DNA from: an uncultured Acidimicrobiaceae bacterium
GTDB taxonomy: Bacteria; Actinomycetota; Acidimicrobiia; Spongiisociales; UBA5794
Assembly (NCBI GenBank): GCA_964460075.1
Contig: CAYWPC010000010.1
Coordinates: 3,102-67,101 of the forward strand
Direction: 5' to 3'
DNA: 64,000 nucleotides
The notes under the pieces were generated by a model. That model saw nothing but the letters and a program-made list of their open reading frames with translations, was not told the origin of the DNA and searched no databases. A program made the position numbers and the translations under genes. Positions within the stretch are counted from its first letter, which is position 1; every line of letters starts with the position of its first letter. Below are positions 1,226 through 54,370 of the stretch, piece after piece.

Positions 1226-1939
1226 CTAGATGAGCGAAGAACCCCACACAGGGAGGAAGGCACCGTTCACAACCTTCGAGCGCTCCGATGCGAGGAAGTC
1301 GATCACCTGAGCGATCTCGTCAGGCTGCGGCCAATTGACGTAGTCGGCATAGGGCAGAGCGGCACGGGTCGCGTCCGTGTTGATCACCGATGGCAGCAAG
1401 GCATTGCACGTCGTGTTCGTGTCGAGTAGCTCGACCGCCACCGATTTCGCAAGAGCCATAACGCCGGCCTTCGCCACGTTGTATGGGGCCTGACCTGCAG
1501 GTGAGTCGACTGCATGCTTTGATCCCATCAGGATGATGCGACCCCAGTCGTGTGACATGTGAGGGATCGCGGCGCGTGTCGTATTCCACGCGGTTCGGAG
1601 ATTGAGATCGAGGATACGATCAAGACGCATATCGGACGTCTCGACGACGTCGCGTCCACCAGCCCAACCGCCGACGAGGGATGCCATGACATTGATGGTT
1701 CCAAATGCCTCAACCGCCTCGGCGAAGAACGCCCCGACGGCTTCGCCATCGACCGCATCGACACGACGAAGGATCAGCCTGTCCTCTTCGAGGTCGAGGG
1801 CCTCTTCGAGTTTGTTGGCCTCCTCAGGGATGAGATACGAGACAGCGACGTTGAAGCCGCGTTCAATGAGGAGCGGGACCAGGCAGTAGCCAACCGAACC
1901 CGTTCCGCCGGGGATGACTGCAACGTTCGCTTCACTCAT
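1226..1939 (-). CDS. Short-chain dehydrogenase/reductase (SDR)
   Basis: PGGTGSVG Rossmann motif and YNVAK catalytic motif; leaderless TAGTGT-N6-ATG start. Confidence 0.9.
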   Translation of the reverse strand: MSEANVAVIPGGTGSVGYCLVPLLIERGFNVAVSYLIPEEANKLEEALDLEEDRLILRRVDAVDGEAVGAFFAEAVEAFGTINVMASLVGGWAGGRDVVETSDMRLDRILDLNLRTAWNTTRAAIPHMSHDWGRIILMGSKHAVDSPAGQAPYNVAKAGVMALAKSVAVELLDTNTTCNALLPSVINTDATRAALPYADYVNWPQPDEIAQVIDFLASERSKVVNGAFLPVWGSSLI

Positions 1940-2026
1940 ACCAACACACTAGCGACACTTTCGACACGGGCAGCAACGGTGGTACGCTCACCTGCACGCC
2001 ACGTAGCCCAGCCCACGGAGGAATCG

Positions 2027-3244
2027 ATGGCTTCCATAAACCTCGAAGACGTCGGAAAGATCTATCCAGATGGCACCCGTGCCGTAGGCCAGGTGAACCT
2101 GACGATCCGAGAGGGTGAGTTCCTGGTACTTGTCGGGCCGTCCGGATGTGGGAAGTCGACCTTGCTCCGCATGATCGCAGGTCTAGAGGAGATCACAGAG
2201 GGCAAGCTCAGCATCGGCGACAAGGTCGTCAACGACGTTCCGCCGAAAGACCGTGACATTGCCATGGTGTTCCAGAATTATGCCCTGTATCCGCATATGA
2301 CCGTCAGGGACAACATGGCGTTCGGTCTCAAGCTGCGAAAGATGCCGAAGAAGGAGATCGAGGAGCGAGTCAGGGAAGCTGCCGAGATCCTGGAGATCAC
2401 CGACTACCTCGAGCGTAAACCGAAGGCACTCTCTGGAGGGCAACGCCAGCGTGTTGCAATGGGGCGCGCCATTGTTCGGGAGCCGAAGGCCTTCCTCATG
2501 GATGAGCCGCTGTCGAACCTCGATGCCAAGCTTCGTGTCCAGATGCGTGCTTCGCTCGGCAGGCTCCATCAGCGACTCGGCACGACGACCGTGTATGTGA
2601 CCCACGACCAGGTCGAGGCGATGACGCTCGGCCACCGTGTGGCTGTGATGCGCCCGGTGTCAGGGAAGCGACCGTACAACTTGCAGCAGGTAGCTGCGCC
2701 GACAGAGTTGTTCAATCACCCGGTGAACCTGTTCGTTGCAGGCTTCATTGGGAGCCCCGCGATGAACATGATGTACGGAACGGTAAGAAAGGAAGGCGAG
2801 CGCTACAGCCTTACCTTCGCAGGGCACACCATCTCGGTTGATCAGGTGGCGGTCGATGCGCATCCCGGTATCGATGACTATCTCGGCAAGGAGATCGTTG
2901 TAGGAATTCGACCTGGAGCCTTCGAGGACGCCAGGGTCGATGGAGCCGCTCCCGGCCGTACGATCCAGGTGACGACGGATGTCAACGAGCTGCTCGGTTC
3001 CGAGTCGTACGTGCACTTCGAACTCGATGCAAAGCCTGTGATCACACCTGACATCGAGGAGCTGCTCGCGGATTCTGGAACCGATGCAGCGTCGCTCGGC
3101 GCCACGACGAGATGCACAGCACGCGTGAACCCGGATGTTCCTGTGCCGGATGGATCCGACGTCGATCTCGTCATCGACACCGCAAAGCTGCATTTCTTCG
3201 ACATTGACAGCGGCGACAAGATCGGTGTCGCGGCGAACCGCTAG
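2027..3244 (+). CDS. msiK: Sugar ABC transporter ATP-binding subunit (MsiK/UgpC family)
   Basis: Start MASINLEDVGK after a GGAGGA RBS; Walker A GPSGCGKS, signature LSGGQRQR, Walker B FLMDEP, C-terminal TOBE-like region. Confidence 0.9.
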   Translation: MASINLEDVGKIYPDGTRAVGQVNLTIREGEFLVLVGPSGCGKSTLLRMIAGLEEITEGKLSIGDKVVNDVPPKDRDIAMVFQNYALYPHMTVRDNMAFGLKLRKMPKKEIEERVREAAEILEITDYLERKPKALSGGQRQRVAMGRAIVREPKAFLMDEPLSNLDAKLRVQMRASLGRLHQRLGTTTVYVTHDQVEAMTLGHRVAVMRPVSGKRPYNLQQVAAPTELFNHPVNLFVAGFIGSPAMNMMYGTVRKEGERYSLTFAGHTISVDQVAVDAHPGIDDYLGKEIVVGIRPGAFEDARVDGAAPGRTIQVTTDVNELLGSESYVHFELDAKPVITPDIEELLADSGTDAASLGATTRCTARVNPDVPVPDGSDVDLVIDTAKLHFFDIDSGDKIGVAANR

Positions 3245-4350
3245 ACCGCCTCGACAACGATCCCGACGGTTTCGAGCTCTGGAAGCAGTTCGGATCCGAC
3301 AACGGCCTCACTCATGGTGCGTACGCCGGGCCTGTGCACCGCTCCATTCGCTATCAGGTCGGCGAGGGCTGTGGCTGGGAAGGCAGTCGTCCGAGCGAGA
3401 GCAGAGAAGTCGCCGCGTTGCGTGTCCTCGATTTGGACGGTGGTCGTGACACCGTTCTGGCGTCGCCACACACGGACGAGGACGAGGTCAGGCGCGCCAC
3501 TAGGAAGGCTTCGGCTCAGTGAGTCCAGGAGGACAGCGCGCGGGGCGACTTCGGTTGCACTTACTCCACGTGCCATCTCGTCGAACAGGCCGAGTTCCAG
3601 CATGGCTCTGAACGTCTGCCCATGGCCAGGGAACCGCAGCGTCTTGTACTCAAGATCTGTGACACGCCCCTGGTGGGTCGTGCACATGGTGGATGTGCCA
3701 CCAGCGGTCGAGAATGCCTCGAGCGGCCCCCAGCGATCCCAGGCAACGTCCTCAAGGCGTGTGAGTGGCTCGACTGTGGTGTACATACCGTTCTCGATGA
3801 CCTCACACGGCTCTGCGTACTCGTTGATGAGTCCCGCGGGGCTGAACGCGAGCTGATACCCCAGAGCGCCCACAGGTATCTGAGGGAGCGCTCCGACGCG
3901 GAGTTGGATGCTCTCGATCGGGCCCTCGTCGGCAGACCGTATGAGGTCCTCACCGAGCACGTTCGCAAGGCCAGGTGCAAGTCCACAATCTGGGACGATC
4001 ATTACCCCAGCAGCAAACGCATCGTCGTGAAGGCGCTTCTGTTCGGCTACAACGGTCGGGTTGCCACCAAAATCCAGGTAGTGCGTCTCGGTCGCTACGG
4101 CTGCCGAGGCGACGCCGACACCGTATCGGTATGGAACTGCGCTCACGACGACCTCGCACGTTTCGAGCAGGTGCCTCACTGCTTGCTCGTCTGCCACATC
4201 GATCGTTACGGGTCGTGCCCCGTAGGCGTGGGCAACGCGTCGGGATGCCTCGATGTCGGCATCTGCGACGATCACGTCGTGGCCCCGCCGCTCGAGGTCC
4301 CACACTGCCGCGGATCCGACGATCCCCGCGCCGAGTACCAGTGTTGTCAT
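3241..4350 (-). CDS. Saccharopine dehydrogenase / lysine 6-dehydrogenase family oxidoreductase
   Basis: LGAGIVG Rossmann motif; DCGLAPGLANV and EAFSTAGGTST-YKTLRFPGH family motifs. Confidence 0.85.
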   Translation of the reverse strand: MTTLVLGAGIVGSAAVWDLERRGHDVIVADADIEASRRVAHAYGARPVTIDVADEQAVRHLLETCEVVVSAVPYRYGVGVASAAVATETHYLDFGGNPTVVAEQKRLHDDAFAAGVMIVPDCGLAPGLANVLGEDLIRSADEGPIESIQLRVGALPQIPVGALGYQLAFSPAGLINEYAEPCEVIENGMYTTVEPLTRLEDVAWDRWGPLEAFSTAGGTSTMCTTHQGRVTDLEYKTLRFPGHGQTFRAMLELGLFDEMARGVSATEVAPRAVLLDSLSRSLPSGAPDLVLVRVWRRQNGVTTTVQIEDTQRGDFSALARTTAFPATALADLIANGAVHRPGVRTMSEAVVGSELLPELETVGIVVEAV

Positions 4351-49055: not shown

Positions 49056-49875
49056 CGGCGGTCTGCCATGCAGGACACAGCGTTGCCTTGAAGTCGCACC
49101 AGTCGCACAACGCAGACGTGGTAGGTGGCCACGTATCGGTCTCAATCGCATGCTCGATTGCCGTCCACAGCGCCTCGAGTTGACGTTCCATGGCATCGAG
49201 CTGTGCGTCGGTGATATCCATGGTGTACTCGGTTGGCCCGTTGAGATACAGGAGTCGAACGCGGTCGGGCGTGACGCCCTTGGTGATTCGGATCAGCAAC
49301 GCGTAGATTTTCAGGGCGAAGAAGGCCTTGTGTGCGAATCGTTGCGGCGGGGCTCTCCCCGTCTTGTAGTCGGTGATCACCAGCACTTCTCGCACGGAGC
49401 CGTCGGTATCGACCTCGGTGATGTGCTCCATTCGGTCGAGGATTCCCCTGATCGTCATGTCGTTCACCGGAACCGTGAGGTCCATCTCGAGCTCGAGCGG
49501 TTCGAATGACGACGGATCCTCCACCGTGAAGTATGAGGCGAGAAGCTCAAGAGACTCAATTCCCCATTGGCGTTCGTCGTCGAGAGACGTGAACAGATCC
49601 GGGTATTCATCAGTTTTGAGCTCGGTCCATGCGGATCGAAAGAGGTCGTAGAGCTGCTCGGGTGTTCGCTGCGCAGCGGGGAGTTGGAACAGACGTTCGA
49701 GGGCGAGATGTGCCGTTGTGCCTCGAGCCTGGTGTACGGTCGGCTCGGTTGGGATCTTGTCGATGGATTTGAACTTGTACAGCTGAGGGCACGTCTTGAA
49801 ATCGCTGGCCCTGCTCGGAGACAGACTCGTCAGCGTGTGCCCTGTCGTGGGGGTGTCGGTGGGTTCGGTAGCCAT
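49045..49875 (-). CDS. RecB-family/Cas4-like exonuclease (Rv2119-like)
   Basis: LSPSRASDFKTCP, RGTTAHLALE, RGILDRM, TDYKTG and CDWCDFKATLC motifs; overlaps the adnA start. Confidence 0.88.
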   Translation of the reverse strand: MATEPTDTPTTGHTLTSLSPSRASDFKTCPQLYKFKSIDKIPTEPTVHQARGTTAHLALERLFQLPAAQRTPEQLYDLFRSAWTELKTDEYPDLFTSLDDERQWGIESLELLASYFTVEDPSSFEPLELEMDLTVPVNDMTIRGILDRMEHITEVDTDGSVREVLVITDYKTGRAPPQRFAHKAFFALKIYALLIRITKGVTPDRVRLLYLNGPTEYTMDITDAQLDAMERQLEALWTAIEHAIETDTWPPTTSALCDWCDFKATLCPAWQTADAG

Positions 49876-49881
49876 GCTCGC

Positions 49882-49903
49882 AGCGTACTTGCCTGCTGTG
49901 ACA
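49882..49903 (-). promoter_or_regulatory. PafBC/RecA-NDp-type DNA-damage promoter (TGTCAC-N10-TACGCT), leaderless
   Basis: Minus strand reads TGTCAC agcaggcaag TACGCT gcgagc ATG, matching the spacing of the TGTCRG-N10-TANNNT consensus (5/6 in the upstream element). Confidence 0.65.
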
Positions 49904-49977
49904 GAAATGGGTTCAGCGAGTCGTCTCGTGGGCGTGTTGCTCGAAGGGATGCAGACCGCACGAGTGAGGCTGCTGTT

Positions 49978-50051
49978 CGCGAAAAACGTGTGTGGGTCGC
50001 GAAAAGCACATGACGTTGTGAGCTACACAGGTGACGGCAGTTCCGTAGTTT
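49978..50051 (+). promoter_or_regulatory. Candidate ncRNA-A promoter: tandem CGCGAAAA boxes plus -10 TAGTTT
   Basis: Boxes at 49978-49985 and 49998-50005; -10 at 50046-50051, the same offset as in unit B. Confidence 0.6.
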
Positions 50052-50058
50052 CCCAAAT

Positions 50059-50470
50059 ATCCAGAGACGTAAGTCGATGGAGTGGCACAGGGCAAGCTCC
50101 TCACCCGAGCAGGCCTAACCGGGCGACCGGGTGCCTTTGCAGCGAAGGGCGACCGGAGCTGCAGCCTGCCGCTTCGGCGGTAGGCACAAGGTCTCGAGCA
50201 GGAGCCCAGCCTTCGAGAGGCCACCGGAGGTCCGCCGTGAGGTTGGGTCTCCACCCGGAGGCGACCTCGGTCGCCGCCGTAGCGTTTCTGCGAACCTCGG
50301 TTCGTATGAGCGGTTCCGTCCAGTGATGGAGACCTCGGTCCTCGTCGAGGACGGAGCACCCCGGGAGGAGTCGGGAGACTGGCGAGACCCGGATTGGAGT
50401 GACTGTGTCACTTCGCTTGAGAACCCCGAGAGGGCGAGGCCTCGGCCGAGCTTCCTCGGGGTTTCTCTTA
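50059..50470 (+). ncRNA. Putative novel structured ncRNA A (about 410 nt)
   Basis: Dense hairpins with UUCG, GNRA and four c(CUCG)g loops; a GAA/GGA-GNRA module; terminal hairpin homologous to ncRNA B; no credible CDS; convergent with the downstream gene. Confidence 0.65.
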
Positions 50471-50476
50471 TGTTGG
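50419..50476 (+). terminator. Intrinsic terminator-like hairpin ending ncRNA A
   Basis: GAGAACCCCGAG...CTCGGGGTTTCTC followed by TTATGTT. Confidence 0.7.
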
Positions 50477-50532
50477 CGGTGCTTGCCTCAGCGCTCCTCT
50501 GCTCCCCAATCTTGTCCACTTCCGGCGCGGCG

Positions 50533-51165
50533 TCAGCACGTCGGCTCGATTGCGATGAAGTCGACGACCCCCGAGTCACCCGGCGCGTCGAGTTTGCCGA
50601 CCATGTGGGGATCAGAGGAGCCGTCGACGACGAACGTCGCGGAGGCGATGTCGTAGGCATCCGTGACGCTGACCCGAGCGCCGTAGGAGTCGACGAGGTC
50701 ACGCCTTGTAGATCCGAGGCCTACGCCTTCTCGAGTGCGAAGGTTGGAATTCCTGAGGTCCACGGAGTTGGCGGTCACCGGATCGAAACCGTAGGACCAG
50801 CTCGCAAGGCGCTCACCGTCGACGTCCGCAATGAAGACGAGAGCGAGGGAGCCCCAAGACACGACACGGGCAGCACCGCTTGGGCATTCGGGGGCAGCAA
50901 CGGTGCTTGCGTCCTCACGTGAGTCGGCGTCCCACCCGCCGATTGCTGCAGCTATGCCAGCGATCACGGTCTCGGCATCGTCGCCGATGGCGAACGGCCC
51001 GATAGCGTCGCTTGTCAGCGTCAGATCGGTGGAAGGGGTCGGTCCGGAGGGGAGACTCGTCGTTGTCGACGGCTCGGCTGTGACGACCGGTTGTGAGATC
51101 GAACAGGCGCCTGCGAGCAGTGCAAGAGCCGTTGCGAGACGAAAAATAGGCGGAATCGAACGCAT
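50533..51165 (-). CDS. Hypothetical lipoprotein
   Basis: Lipobox LAGAC, Thr/Pro linker, one Cys pair; leaderless TACCGT-N6-ATG promoter. Confidence 0.75.
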   Translation of the reverse strand: MRSIPPIFRLATALALLAGACSISQPVVTAEPSTTTSLPSGPTPSTDLTLTSDAIGPFAIGDDAETVIAGIAAAIGGWDADSREDASTVAAPECPSGAARVVSWGSLALVFIADVDGERLASWSYGFDPVTANSVDLRNSNLRTREGVGLGSTRRDLVDSYGARVSVTDAYDIASATFVVDGSSDPHMVGKLDAPGDSGVVDFIAIEPTC

Positions 51166-51186
51166 TTCGCAACGGTAGTCGGGAGA

Positions 51187-51260
51187 CGCGAAAACTCGTC
51201 GTGGCTCGCGAAAAGCAATCAGCGTTCCAGGTTGCGAAGCCTCTCTGCATGTGCCAAATT
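51187..51260 (+). promoter_or_regulatory. Candidate ncRNA-B promoter: tandem CGCGAAAA boxes, -35 TTGCGA, N17, extended -10 TGn-CAAATT
   Basis: Boxes at 51187-51194 and 51207-51214; TTGCGA at 51232-51237; CAAATT at 51255-51260. Confidence 0.62.
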
Positions 51261-51267
51261 AATGCTT

Positions 51268-51580
51268 ACCGCAAAGGGGCAACCCGGAGCGGACCGCAAT
51301 CGGGGAGACCCGGGAGCGGGTGCCGAAGGGAAACCGGAGGCATCCGGTGTAAAAACCGGTGACCGGTCTGGAAACGGGCCGGGTCCTTGAGAGGGCACCC
51401 TCGGGTGTTCGGGGCGTCCGCCCCAGTCCTCGGCTTCGGTCGACGACAATCACAAGGAGGGTGCGAGTCTCGATTCGCATCTGGCTCCGCTTGCGGAGCA
51501 GCGAAACCGAAGGCCGCAAGGTCGGAGGCGACGTAGAGAACACCCCAAGGGGGCTTCGGCTTCCTTGGGGTTTCTCGTTG
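51268..51580 (+). ncRNA. Putative novel structured ncRNA B (about 310 nt)
   Basis: About 13 consecutive hairpins, mostly capped by GNRA/UUCG/CUUG/CUCG loops; four RAW/GGA-GNRA modules; terminal hairpin; the downstream gene has its own leaderless promoter. Confidence 0.75.
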
Positions 51581-51585
51581 TTGGC
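51536..51585 (+). terminator. Intrinsic terminator-like hairpin ending ncRNA B
   Basis: GAGAACACCCCAAGG-GGGC-TTCG-GCTT-CCTTGGGGTTTCTC followed by GTTGTT. Confidence 0.72.
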
Positions 51586-51661
51586 TCACCAACGACGAGG
51601 CGTCGTCGAGTCCACAGATGCCGGACGTCCACCGAGGTTCAAGGTGAACTATGCTGGCTGC

Positions 51662-52279
51662 ATGTCCTGGCCAGATGACGCCCTCAGCGATGACGAAACG
51701 ATCATCACCTCGTTTAGGCCTCATTGGAAGTTGCTGTTCATCCCGTTCGTGTGGTTCGTCGCGATCGTCGTGGTGTTCTCCTTTGCACTTGCGTTGCTCA
51801 CGGACCTGTGGATCGTCTGGTTGGGCATCCTTGTCGCTGCAGACGCATACTTCGTCATTCGGCCTGTCGTCAACTGGTGGTTCACTCGCTACGTGCTCAC
51901 GACGGAGCGGTTGATCACCCGAGTCGGCCTCATCGCACAGTCGGGTGTCGAGATCCCGCTCGAACGGATCACGAACGTCAACTTCTCGCAATCTGTGTTT
52001 GAGCGGTTACTCGGAGCTGGTGATCTACTGATCGAATCTGCCGGAACATCCGGGCAGAGCAAGTTTTCGAACATCCCTCACCCCGATGACTTCCAGACCC
52101 TCTTGTACAAGGTGCGCGAGAAGCGGACCATCGAGCTGAGCGGCATGCAAGACGCGCTCGACACACCCAAGGCAGACGCCGTCGACTCCATTCGCAGGCT
52201 CGCAGAGCTCCTTGAGGAAGGTCTCGTCTCACCAGAGGAGTACGAGATGAAGCGCAAAGAACTGCTCGACGAGATGTAG
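51662..52279 (+). CDS. Membrane protein with bacterial PH (bPH_2) and SHOCT domains
   Basis: RPHW, two TM segments, YVLTTERLITRVG-IPLERITNV, ERLLGAGDLLIESAG, and SHOCT LAELLEEGLVSPEEYEMKRKELL. TATGCT-N6-ATG leaderless start. Confidence 0.88.
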   Translation: MSWPDDALSDDETIITSFRPHWKLLFIPFVWFVAIVVVFSFALALLTDLWIVWLGILVAADAYFVIRPVVNWWFTRYVLTTERLITRVGLIAQSGVEIPLERITNVNFSQSVFERLLGAGDLLIESAGTSGQSKFSNIPHPDDFQTLLYKVREKRTIELSGMQDALDTPKADAVDSIRRLAELLEEGLVSPEEYEMKRKELLDEM

Positions 52280-52311: not shown

Positions 52312-53124
52312 TCAGTCGGCCTGTTTCGGCGGTTCCCGTTCAGCAGGATCCTGCCGGTAGAACTCCCCCAGGACACCGTACAACTCAGGCGTGGCTGCGG
52401 CCATGTCGATGGGACGATCGAAAAAGAACTCGGTGGCGACCGCAAAGAACTCGGCGCGGTTGACCCCGGCGTAGGCGTCGAGGAACGGGTGGCCGCTCAC
52501 GCCCTCCTGCAGCGCCTCGTACTCGCGAGCACAAACTTGTTCCCATCGGCCCCGCAGCACCGTGTCCATTGGAGGCATGCCATCGGCTGCCCCATCAGCC
52601 ATGTCGATCTTGTGAGCAAACTCGTGATATACGACGTTGTGTCCGGTGTCGGGATGTGCCGCGGATCGTTTCGCCGAGTCCCACGCGATCACGACTGGGC
52701 CGTGGAGGGCAGCCTCACCGAGGATCGGGACGATCGTGTCGGTCTCCAAGATGCCGATCTCCGGCACCGAGCGTCTGCCCCTCAACACGACACTGCTCGG
52801 ATACATGATGATCGACGAGACATCTCGGTAGTAGGCATTCTCGAGTCCGAGGATCAGCAGACAGGCAGACGCCGCGACGAGGACCTTGATCTCGACGGAC
52901 TCAGCCAGCTCACTGGCCCACTCGAAGCGCTTCTCGAAGAGGAACACCTTGATGAGGCGCTCGAGGCGGGCCCTGTCATCATCGTCAAGCCATCGCCAGT
53001 GCACCATCTCAGACTCAAGCAGTACCTGCCACTCGGTGGGGAAAGGGGCTTCCATGGCCCTGCGTCGACGTCGCTGCCTTGGTGTTTCGATACGCATGGG
53101 GTCCGTTCGTCGAGCATCGATCAT
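52312..53124 (-). CDS. M90-family (MtfA-like) zinc peptidase
   Basis: GEAALHGPVVIAW, NVVYHEFAHKID and EFFAVATEFFF motifs; start may be 53097. Confidence 0.85.
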   Translation of the reverse strand: MIDARRTDPMRIETPRQRRRRRAMEAPFPTEWQVLLESEMVHWRWLDDDDRARLERLIKVFLFEKRFEWASELAESVEIKVLVAASACLLILGLENAYYRDVSSIIMYPSSVVLRGRRSVPEIGILETDTIVPILGEAALHGPVVIAWDSAKRSAAHPDTGHNVVYHEFAHKIDMADGAADGMPPMDTVLRGRWEQVCAREYEALQEGVSGHPFLDAYAGVNRAEFFAVATEFFFDRPIDMAAATPELYGVLGEFYRQDPAEREPPKQAD

Positions 53125-53146
53125 AGATTGCCGCAAGCGGTCACTG

Positions 53147-54370
53147 TCACGCTTCGTCTTGAACCCGTGCTCTATCGAAACGGGCGACGACCTCGATGTG
53201 GTATGTCTGGGGGAACAGGTCGACCGGCGTTGCCTCGACGAACTCGTAGCCGTGGGACGCGAGCATGCGAGCGTCGCGGGCGAGCGAAGCCGGGTCGCAC
53301 GAGACGTAGGCGATACGCCGAGGCATGGCAGCCGTGACGGCTTCGACGCCCCGCTCACCGAGCCCCTTGCGAGGTGGATCGACGACCGCAACGTCCCAGT
53401 ACTCGTTGAGTTGCTCGATGTCCTTCGTGAAGGAGCCGGTGATGATGTGATGGTCGATACCTGCGCCTGAGAGGTTTTGTCGTGCGAAGTCGACGGCTCT
53501 GCCCGACGCTTCGATGCCGATGACCCGTGCGGCTTTGGCGCCGACGGTTGCACCGAACAACGCAACGCCGCAGTACCCGTCGAGCAGGGTCTCGTGCGGC
53601 TCGATCATCAGCAGATCCCCTACGAGCCCGACGAGTGCCTCAGCCCCATCGGTGTTGTTCTGAAAGAATCCATCTGCTGGTATCGCAAAGTCGACACCGT
53701 CGACGATTTCGGTCAATGTGTCGGTGCCGACGATGGCCTTCGTCGAGCGCCCGTTGCGGTGTGCCACCGACGTTCCCCATTCGGCAACCTGCTCGGGTAT
53801 CTCGCCGTCGACTATCGCGAGGAGGACGCCGGTGCGTGTGCCGGAGCGAAGCGTGAGACGCTCGACGCCTGAGAGGTCGCCCAAGGCAGCGAAGACGGCT
53901 TGGAGCTCTGGCACCATCAGTAGACATTGGCTCAAAGGGACGAGATCATTCGACCGTTCCCGCGAGAGTGCAGGTGTGCCTTCGGCAACCCGAAAGTCCA
54001 TGCGGTTGCGATAGCGGAGGTTCGGACCGACGACGACGGTTTCGTGAACGACAGGGGAGCGGATCTTACCGAGATGTTCGAGTTGGCCAACGACGGTCGA
54101 ACGTTTCCATCGGCGCTGCTCCGACTCATTGGCGAACTGCCACTGGCATCCGCCGCACGCCGAGGCGTGGGGGCACGGTTGGTCTCTGCGCTCTGGTGAC
54201 GGCGCAACGATGTCGACGAGTGCCGTTCTGGCCCACGAGCCCTTGTCCTCGACCACGGTCGCTCTCACAACTTCCCCTGGCATTGCACCTGGGATGAAGT
54301 ACGCCTTTCCGTCGTGACGCGCGACGGCTTCGCCGCCGTGGGCCATGTCGTGTGGGTGGAGTTCCATCAT
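53147..54370 (-). CDS. TRAM-domain RNA m5U methyltransferase (RlmD/TrmA family)
   Basis: TRAM N-terminus, CPHASACGGCQWQ Fe-S motif, FFQNN, DGYCGV, VDPPRKG, YVSCDP and DLFPQTYHIE motifs. Confidence 0.92.
   Translation of the reverse strand: MMELHPHDMAHGGEAVARHDGKAYFIPGAMPGEVVRATVVEDKGSWARTALVDIVAPSPERRDQPCPHASACGGCQWQFANESEQRRWKRSTVVGQLEHLGKIRSPVVHETVVVGPNLRYRNRMDFRVAEGTPALSRERSNDLVPLSQCLLMVPELQAVFAALGDLSGVERLTLRSGTRTGVLLAIVDGEIPEQVAEWGTSVAHRNGRSTKAIVGTDTLTEIVDGVDFAIPADGFFQNNTDGAEALVGLVGDLLMIEPHETLLDGYCGVALFGATVGAKAARVIGIEASGRAVDFARQNLSGAGIDHHIITGSFTKDIEQLNEYWDVAVVDPPRKGLGERGVEAVTAAMPRRIAYVSCDPASLARDARMLASHGYEFVEATPVDLFPQTYHIEVVARFDRARVQDEA

Follow-up and report, generated by a model that had tools for sequence, protein, structure and literature searches.

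Two structured RNA genes beside an adnAB operon as probable members of an undescribed small RNA family of Acidimicrobiia

Sets of paralogous small RNAs (sRNAs) are well known from the Rsm/Csr systems, whose RNAs (RsmX/Y/Z and CsrB/C) share an upstream activating element and consist of modular hairpin arrays followed by intrinsic terminators. Sibling sRNAs such as Qrr1-5 and LhrC1-5 are likewise co-regulated and often encoded in tandem, are about 100 nucleotides (nt) long and use a shared single-stranded seed. In addition, the neighborhood of Ms1 comprises a HAD-IB hydrolase gene on one side and a PH-domain gene among the flanking genes (PMC9130861), and no Ms1 is reported for Acidimicrobiia in PMC9130861 or PMC4191392. 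The structured raiA RNA also occurs in Actinobacteria (PMC10861870). Here, we analyze a 64-kb stretch of contig CAYWPC010000010.1 from an uncultured Acidimicrobiaceae bacterium (the window), in which the region 49978-51585 contains two plus-strand units, A and B, described in an earlier note as two paralogous, co-regulated structured non-coding RNA genes. Homologs in related genomes keep the stems of both units via compensatory changes, and judged from sequence comparison the units are very probably genuine co-regulated sRNA genes of a new family.

Both units have a pair of direct repeats (boxes) upstream of the promoter (Table 1). The arrangement CGCGAAAA-N12-CGCGAAAAGCA has only two matches in the 64 kb (49978-50008 and 51187-51217), even if up to three mismatches are allowed, and none was obtained in 100 dinucleotide-preserving shuffles; the two segments are identical in 24 of their 31 bases. 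Single boxes with one mismatch are not over-represented in the window (11 found vs. 17 expected), and the signal therefore resides in the paired arrangement. The -10 hexamers (TAGTTT at 50046 and CAAATT at 51255) both start 41 nt past the final A of box 2, each with an A 7 nt further on (50059 and 51268); relative to this putative +1, the box centers are located at about -77 and -57. A semi-palindromic CCAGCGNTCTGG element sits between box 2 and the -35 hexamer. The layout across 78 distinct promoters consists of box 1, N12, box 2, N17, a TTGC(R) -35 motif, N17 and a TAnnTT -10 motif, and a gap of about 7 nt separates the -10 from the first base of the 5' hairpin in the related loci. Because these loci show the full promoter layout, the -10 and +1 assignments for units A and B, the latter made by positional alignment, appear to be correct, although the -35 of unit A in the window is degenerate (CTACAC vs. 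TTGC in the orthologs). The promoters are predicted to be of the sigma-70 or housekeeping type (TTGC-N17-TAnnTT). Nothing relevant to the box sequence or to non-coding RNAs of Acidimicrobiia turned up in literature searches.

Eight loci related to the window were fetched via homologs of the 210-aa protein encoded between units A and B. The promoter, the 5' hairpin and the terminator are kept in 8/8 of these syntenic loci, with unit A of one of them (L002) truncated by the contig end. Structural conservation was evaluated in an alignment of eight type A sequences (A3) and another of 22 type B sequences (A4), named after the units of the window. In type A, 92.8% of the cells of 101 consensus pairs are paired (30-51% in slid controls) and 33 pairs are changed on both sides (7-12 in slid controls), whereas the values for type B are 98.5% (34-55%) and 23 pairs (3-7); none of 500 shuffles reached the observed values in either alignment. 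The 13-bp 3' stem of type B, which includes two G·U pairs, is invariant in 22/22 sequences, whereas the neighboring helices covary freely. No pseudoknot or long-range covariation was detected in these two alignments, and type B contains no conserved single-stranded run of 7 nt or more, its invariant bases being located in hairpin caps and stems. The conserved G·U pairs together with the UUCG and GNRA loops identify the plus strand of the window as the transcribed one. Variability is flat over the codon positions (0.218/0.219/0.226) and the length of most gap runs is not divisible by three; this lack of three-base periodicity and the frameshifting gaps indicate that the segments encode no protein, so that the codon-level conservation which would have spoken against the earlier note was looked for and not found. 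After removal of promoter and terminator, the bodies of A and B still show a weak collinear similarity (E 1e-5 to 0.1), which fits an old paralogy. Each candidate gene thus has a non-coding, covarying structure placed between a conserved promoter and a conserved terminator, as expected for independent sRNA genes.

The features on which the earlier note had based its proposal, namely the box pair, the -10 and +1-equivalent positions, the hairpin arrays and the 3' hairpins, were all recovered where it had placed them. It had also listed four words shared by the units, all of which are present; CGGAGGCGAC and GAGACCCGG are unique to the units, but GCAGCGAA and CACAAGG are common in the window (10 and 15 copies) and carry no weight. 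The proposed novelty held against Rfam 15, as cmscan of the whole window at the gathering threshold gave no match, only chance-level matches were obtained at E<=10 in 49850-51700, and nothing other than tRNAs was found in 38 related loci. No match to plasmid and phage collections was obtained with the window segment either. Literature searches yielded no description of such a family, and we regard it as an undescribed family of bacterial structured sRNAs.

To see how far the design extends, a collection of species-representative genomes was scanned with the pattern box-N13-box-N17-TKGC, resulting in at least 120 stretches. The large majority come from metagenome-assembled genomes (MAGs) of Acidimicrobiia, and about 20 matches in unrelated phyla look like chance occurrences. 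Several contigs with the typical Acidimicrobiia layout of RNA plus nuclease or nrdJ carry other taxon labels (Acidobacteriota for L032, L040, L057, L063 and L125), and the same oddity recurs with typical RNA layouts labeled Kiloniellales (L096), Armatimonadetes (L123), Saprospiraceae (L121) and Gammaproteobacteria (L066 and L077); these are probably mis-binned or mislabeled MAG contigs and no evidence for a wider host range. Profiles of the promoter and the 3' hairpin, run on the window and 77 fetched loci, identified at least 123 units reaching from promoter to terminator, with body lengths of 46-865 nt and modes at about 150, 280-310 and 400 nt. They comprise 29 type A, 30 type B and 64 other bodies (at least 29 of the type A homologs are full-length); besides types A, B and C, a CACAGGCGGAGT-type RNA is distinguished. 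Tandem CGCGAAAA boxes precede all of the at least 123 genes. The pair postulated by the earlier note is therefore real, but the system is not confined to it: units A and B are members of a much larger superfamily with several copies per genome. Several contig pairs of the same assembly (shared accession prefix) hold members at two separate loci.

All types have in common the boxes, the promoter and a 3' hairpin with the core CCCC(R)AG(R)GGG...CUYCCUYGGGG, usually followed by UUUYUCGCGU. The reverse complement of this tail, ACGCGARAAA, resembles an inverted promoter box; the comparison covered 120 family terminators, and the feature is absent from the two units of the window. A 5' hairpin built from a stem, an internal loop, 3-4 bp, a GNRA loop, GAA and the closing stem strand is present in all units except two mini-genes of 49 nt, and in types A, B and C the 5' GCAA hairpin is kept along with the 3' hairpin. 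The 3' hairpin occurs in 132 copies in 0.96 Mb; a box promoter is found no more than 900 nt upstream of 123 of them, and locus ends truncate four of the remaining nine. With 123/132 copies paired with box promoters, we rejected the idea that it is a generic terminator. Between these ends, the bodies are arrays of ultra-stable capped hairpins; the commonest word is cUUCGg (225 vs. 19 expected), cGCAAg, gGAAAc and gGCAAc are similarly enriched, and GNRA-capped hairpins (757 vs. 215 in shuffles) as well as a strict module of a 3x3 purine loop plus GNRA loop (79 vs. 1.2 in shuffles) are strongly over-represented. A hairpin with an AGCCCAG loop is invariant in type A and recurs in forms of about 190 nt (k-mer seen 26 times vs. 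2.1 expected). Whole hairpins are gained and lost between lineages: the 5' module is duplicated in the clade of the window, an extra 3' module is present in L002, L008 and L060, and an extra hairpin in L105, L108 and L111. A role of the word CGAGAGG as a sarcin-ricin loop mimic was considered and dropped, as the word appears in three different structural contexts (tetraloop, internal loop and stem).

Some members of the superfamily deserve separate mention. The two mini-genes (L027 4084-4213 and L088 2756-2887) consist of a box promoter followed by the 3' hairpin alone, giving a 49-nt RNA, and lie between two full-length members; they represent either a minimal functional unit or a decayed copy. 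A type C member of about 156 nt (L026 1037-1280) is located 45 nt from a gene for a membrane GAF-SpoIIE (PP2C) phosphatase (1325-3790), and similar cases occur in L030, L039 and others; in five loci, ORFs (open reading frames) clustering with this phosphatase gene are no more than 1.5 kb away from a family RNA, with Pfam having been run on that of L026 only. Short tandem repeats with units of 6-10 nt (e.g., GGCTGTC, CAGATTT, CCAGAHA, GGTCGCC, GGGGACT) were noticed in the intergenic DNA adjoining the RNA genes of L003 (downstream of both RNAs), L004, L077, L082, L099, L118 and L127, several of which are unrelated.

The box promoter also occurs outside the family. The same layout of boxes and promoter is found about 200 nt upstream of nrdJ, coding for a class II ribonucleotide reductase as identified by Pfam, in at least 14 loci, where the boxes precede a second promoter with NrdR-type boxes and DnaA-box-like TGTGGATA words; the upstream promoter may give rise to either an extended nrdJ leader or a short RNA. 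A different sRNA of about 110 nt (…CACAGGCGGAGUNCC…GGACCAACCGC…AAAGGGCGCCUCCCUCGGGGCGCCCUUUG), which lacks the family 3' hairpin and has no Rfam match, is preceded by the box promoter in at least six loci. In at least two loci (L014 ~2966-3021 and, on the minus strand, L042 ~4280-4333), the boxes lie ahead of a promoter overlapping a LexA/SOS-type box (CGAAC-N4-GTTCG), followed by the gene for a 281-aa protein without Pfam domain, and in at least two loci they are located upstream of a short hairpin RNA.

The genes around the units are conserved in part. In the eight fetched loci, the order is M90 peptidase, bPH_2/SHOCT gene, unit B, lipoprotein-like gene, unit A, PD-(D/E)XK nuclease, AdnA and AdnB. 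Of the 77 loci, 46, which stem from many different MAGs, have the first RNA gene immediately next to and divergent from the nuclease-adnA-adnB operon, and in 19 the bPH_2/SHOCT gene comes after the second RNA gene. The ancestral order is adnB-adnA-nuclease, then divergently RNA1, RNA2 and the PH gene. The earlier note had described the units as flanking a lipoprotein; the latter is incidental, as the 210-aa gene is found between the RNAs in the clade of the window, whereas RNA1 and RNA2 stand in tandem without it in most other loci. Of the 24 homologs of its product, all those with an organism name belong to Acidimicrobiia MAGs, and the gene is a clade-specific insertion outside the RNA system. 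A search with the PH protein matched only close Acidimicrobiia relatives. Further downstream, two mechanically called minus-strand ORFs, 52312-53565 (M90 peptidase) and 53147-54370 (similar to tRNA U5-methyltransferases), overlap by about 420 nt; the homologs of the peptidase are called at 234-266 aa, and its true start is probably well downstream of 53565.

The leaderless operon promoter matches the consensus TGTCACAC-N8-GTAYRGT-N6-ATG in 33/41 loci (the window, L001, L003, L005-L007, L010 and others). It resembles the RecA-NDp/PafBC DNA-damage motif of mycobacteria, the RecA-NDp sequence reportedly having been given by Gamulin et al. in 2004, and suggests that a LexA-independent damage response may extend to Acidimicrobiia. 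In mycobacteria, PafBC activates DNA-damage genes through the RecA-NDp motif (PMC6789036). The distance between the operon promoter motif and box 1 varies from about 15 to 150 nt, which assigns the boxes to the RNA promoter rather than to that of the operon, and joint control of the nuclease promoter by the boxes is unlikely with so variable a distance. The earlier note had seen no link to the nuclease-adnAB operon. The adjacency itself turned out to be conserved, but as the promoters keep no fixed register, it is taken as a conserved position rather than as a functional link.

Table 1. Features of units A and B, their surroundings and other sites of the box promoter. Positions refer to the window unless a locus is named.
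Feature	Position	Strand	Details
Nuclease-adnA-adnB leaderless promoter	49873..49903	-	TGTCACAG-N8-TACGCT-N6-ATG
Unit A upstream element	49977..50008	+	direct CGCGAAAA boxes 49978-49985 and 49998-50005, 20 bp apart; only such pair besides that of unit B
Unit A core promoter	50023..50051	+	weak -35 CTACAC 50023-50028, 17-nt spacer, -10 TAGTTT 50046-50051; putative +1 A 50059
Unit A RNA (type A, ~410 nt)	50059..50470	+	minimum free energy (MFE) -228.8 kcal/mol, z -6.7
Unit A 5' GNRA hairpin	50060-50081	+	
Unit A GAA/GGA-GCGA module	50139-50162	+	
Unit A conserved hairpin, AGCCCAG loop	50190-50222	+	
Unit A GGAG/GAG-GAGA module	50360-50392	+	
Unit A 3' hairpin/terminator	50419..50467	+	GAGAA-CCCCGAGAGGGC-GA-GGCC-UCGG-CCGA-GCUUCCUCGGGG-UUUCUC
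210-aa secreted or lipoprotein-like gene	50533..51165	-	N-terminus MRSIPPIFRLATALALLAGAC; no Pfam match
Unit B upstream element	51186..51217	+	CGCGAAAA boxes 51187-51194 and 51207-51214
Unit B core promoter	51232..51260	+	-35 TTGCGA 51232-51237, 17-nt spacer, -10 CAAATT 51255-51260; putative +1 A 51268
Unit B RNA (type B, ~310 nt)	51268..51579	+	MFE -169.6 kcal/mol, z -5.6
Unit B modules	51269-51292, 51294-51319, 51320-51343, 51506-51529	+	stem, 3x3 purine loop (GAA/GGA), 2-4 bp, GNRA loop
Unit B hairpins	51344-51359, 51363-51382, 51396-51407, 51410-51424, 51429-51446, 51460-51481, 51484-51499	+	
Unit B 3' hairpin/terminator	51536..51576	+	GAGAAC-ACCCCAAGGGGGC-UUCG-GCUUCCUUGGGGU-UUCUC
bPH_2 + SHOCT membrane protein gene	51650..52279	+	own leaderless promoter TATGCT-N6-ATG 51650-51664, also in L001-L006
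nrdJ loci with boxes	e.g. L009 3162-3460		L009, L016, L018, L023, L038, L047, L056, L061, L065, L067, L090, L112, L121, L122
~110-nt sRNA loci	e.g. L077 ~5560-5370	-	L055, L058, L066, L077, L082, L127

Further UUCG and GNRA hairpins are present in the body of unit A in addition to those listed in Table 1.

Regarding function, the best explanation overall seems to be that the units are independent co-regulated sRNA genes whose products act as protein-binding RNAs, a reading about which we are close to evenly divided. One DNA-binding factor would recognize the tandem boxes, which are direct repeats two helical turns apart upstream of a near-consensus -35, and would co-regulate all RNAs of the family together with the second promoter upstream of nrdJ. 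The RNAs would act in trans by binding a protein as decoys or scaffolds. The recognition handles may be the sequence-invariant 3' hairpin and probably also the conserved 5' hairpin with its GAA internal loop, while the body of tetraloop hairpins would mainly provide stability, spacing or an additional binding surface of low specificity. Protein binding via the end hairpins is, in our estimate, somewhat less likely than not. It is suggested by the contrast between the ordinary helices, which vary with their pairing kept, and the unchanged 3' stem of type B, the conserved 5' GAA loop and the GNRA cap; this points to sequence-specific recognition of the end hairpins, most simply by a protein. The near absence of the 3' hairpin without a box promoter and the two loci with hairpin-only mini-genes support the handle idea as well. 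Such a co-regulation of nrdJ would hint that control may be tied to growth, replication or DNA damage.

Several observations weigh against this interpretation. Instead of protein recognition, an RNA-RNA tertiary contact or a particular need of termination might be what keeps the 3' hairpin invariant. No repeated single-stranded motif of the GGA type was enriched in the k-mer counts of the family RNAs, and the strict purine-loop module is found only about once in each RNA and not at all in the forms of about 150 nt, which together leave a classical multi-site sponge unsupported. Only two related MAGs contain the mini-genes, and these may have arisen by decay. Finally, the alignments are mostly derived from MAGs, and kinship inflates the shuffle statistics given above, with the slid controls unaffected. 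A wider combination of these ideas is speculative and rather improbable as a whole: a factor on the CGCGAAAA boxes might drive a cassette-like set of RNAs plus nrdJ, the end hairpins might serve as handles for an RNA-binding protein, as a class-specific counterpart of the Hfq/ProQ handle systems, or the RNAs might be ligands of a WYL-domain DNA-damage regulator of the neighboring nuclease-adnAB operon, and the interchangeable bodies might give paralog specificity.

Among the rival explanations, the one we take most seriously, while still thinking it improbable, is that the RNAs are base-pairing sibling sRNAs whose exposed loops (AGCCCAG in type A) or the anti-Shine-Dalgarno-like CUUCCUY strand of the 3' hairpin pair with mRNAs and thereby control their translation or stability. 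Several paralogs under one promoter design are typical of sibling sRNAs, the AGCCCAG loop hairpin is invariant in type A, and the 3' hairpin indeed pairs a Shine-Dalgarno-like strand (AAGGGGG or GAGAGGG) with an anti-Shine-Dalgarno-like one. However, the latter strand is locked in a helix of 13-20 bp, type B offers no single-stranded stretch of seed length, no site complementary to the AGCCCAG loop is found near the starts of neighboring genes in the window, and seed-type sRNAs do not usually have bodies of 300-600 nt composed of ultra-stable hairpins. Considerably less likely is a function arising from the fold of the RNA itself, be it a ribozyme, a ligand-binding RNA or an RNA-only multimer as reported for certain large ornate bacterial RNAs, in which GNRA loops would dock into helical receptors. 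The abundance of GNRA loops, the purine-rich internal loops as potential receptors, the invariant G·U pairs of the 3' hairpin and the joint conservation of both end hairpins in types A, B and C would fit, but hairpins come and go between close lineages and the length varies more than 10-fold, which is hard to reconcile with one precise tertiary architecture, and the alignments gave no sign of long-range contacts. Moreover, the commonest word is the cUUCGg cap, and such caps are not usual tertiary-contact elements.

We judge it similarly unlikely that the RNAs are analogs or distant positional homologs of Ms1 or 6S RNA, i.e., abundant structured binders of RNA polymerase expressed from a strong promoter. 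RNA2 directly precedes the bPH_2 gene, and "PH domain-containing protein" is a phrase used for an Ms1 flanking gene (PMC9130861), which is a match by phrase; a size of about 300-400 nt and a sigma-A-type promoter fit as well (PMC4191392). Yet there is no rod with a central bubble, as the consensus structures are arrays of local hairpins and long-range pairs contribute 6% of the total in unit A and none in unit B (0%), and the body lengths of 46-865 nt are at odds with such an RNA. No HAD-IB hydrolase is encoded within about 10 kb, and the genes from 38.7 to 61.6 kb include no HAD hydrolase; nhmmer with type A, type B and terminator profiles found nothing at E<=100 in the Ms1 RNA of S. coelicolor (scr3559), and Rfam gave no 6S match (RF00013). 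Membership in the Ms1/6S family, as distinct from RNA polymerase binding as such, is not supported: it fails the structural, the synteny and the sequence tests. It is very unlikely that unit B serves the PH-domain gene in cis, as a 5' leader or attenuator, with unit A as a remnant copy. RNA2 does share the strand of the bPH_2 gene, which it directly precedes in 19 loci, and has a terminator at its end, but the PH gene possesses a conserved -10 of its own with a 6-nt gap to the ATG, the invariant type B terminator shows no apparent alternative antiterminator pairing, and RNAs of this design are also found convergent to genes or next to unrelated ones. The view of the earlier note that neither unit is a leader is thus borne out, unit A being convergent with the minus-strand 210-aa gene and the PH gene having its own conserved leaderless promoter. 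Hardly credible at all is any reading without RNA genes, in which the units would code for protein or represent repeated or mobile DNA. Long ORFs do overlap the region by chance, which is not surprising in GC-rich DNA, and a cassette of promoter and terminator is repeated several times per genome; against this stand the non-coding pattern of variation, the compensatory changes preserving the stems, the stable syntenic position in 46/77 loci and the lack of plasmid or phage matches.

Acidimicrobiia are abundant in soils, sediments and the sea, and to our knowledge almost nothing is known about RNA-based regulation in them. The family is seen in MAGs from many samples and combines a clear tandem-box signature with an invariant 3' hairpin and bodies which evolve by gain and loss of hairpins. 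The boxes offer a handle to the transcription factor and the 3' hairpin one to the binding protein of the proposed protein-binding RNAs, and the nrdJ promoter and the adnAB neighbor point to DNA damage, replication stress and growth phase as conditions of interest. For genome annotation, a new covariance-model family would label well over 100 intergenic regions that are otherwise blank.

Compared with the systems described at the outset, the family resembles the Rsm/Csr RNAs in having several paralogs per genome, a shared upstream element, hairpin arrays of variable copy number and a terminator. It differs in that its loops are UUCG or GNRA without a repeated GGA loop motif, its 3' hairpin is sequence-invariant, and its upstream element is a direct repeat instead of the palindromic GacA/UvrY box. 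A Csr-like repeated motif was rejected, as the enriched words of 5-7 nt are cUUCGg, cGCAAg, gGAAAc and gGCAAc, and no GGA-loop word is among them. Ms1 and 6S RNA have in common with the family a structured sRNA of 300-400 nt, a sigma-A-type promoter, a terminator and a PH-domain neighbor (PMC9130861, PMC4191392), whereas the family lacks the rod with bubble, the HAD-IB neighbor and any sequence similarity, and consists of multiple variable paralogs. The Qrr and LhrC siblings likewise form sets of co-regulated paralogs, many of them encoded side by side, in which promoter elements and terminators are conserved, but the bodies of the present family are long and almost fully paired and their common elements are structured hairpins. 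The covariation-supported structure and many GNRA loops recall raiA, OLE, ROOL, GOLLD and HEARO, each of which has one fixed architecture, unlike the interchangeable bodies between constant ends observed here, and none of which was matched by cmscan. The family resembles known sets of co-regulated paralogous sRNAs, and what is unusual about it is that promoter, 5' hairpin and 3' hairpin stay constant while the bodies between them are exchangeable.

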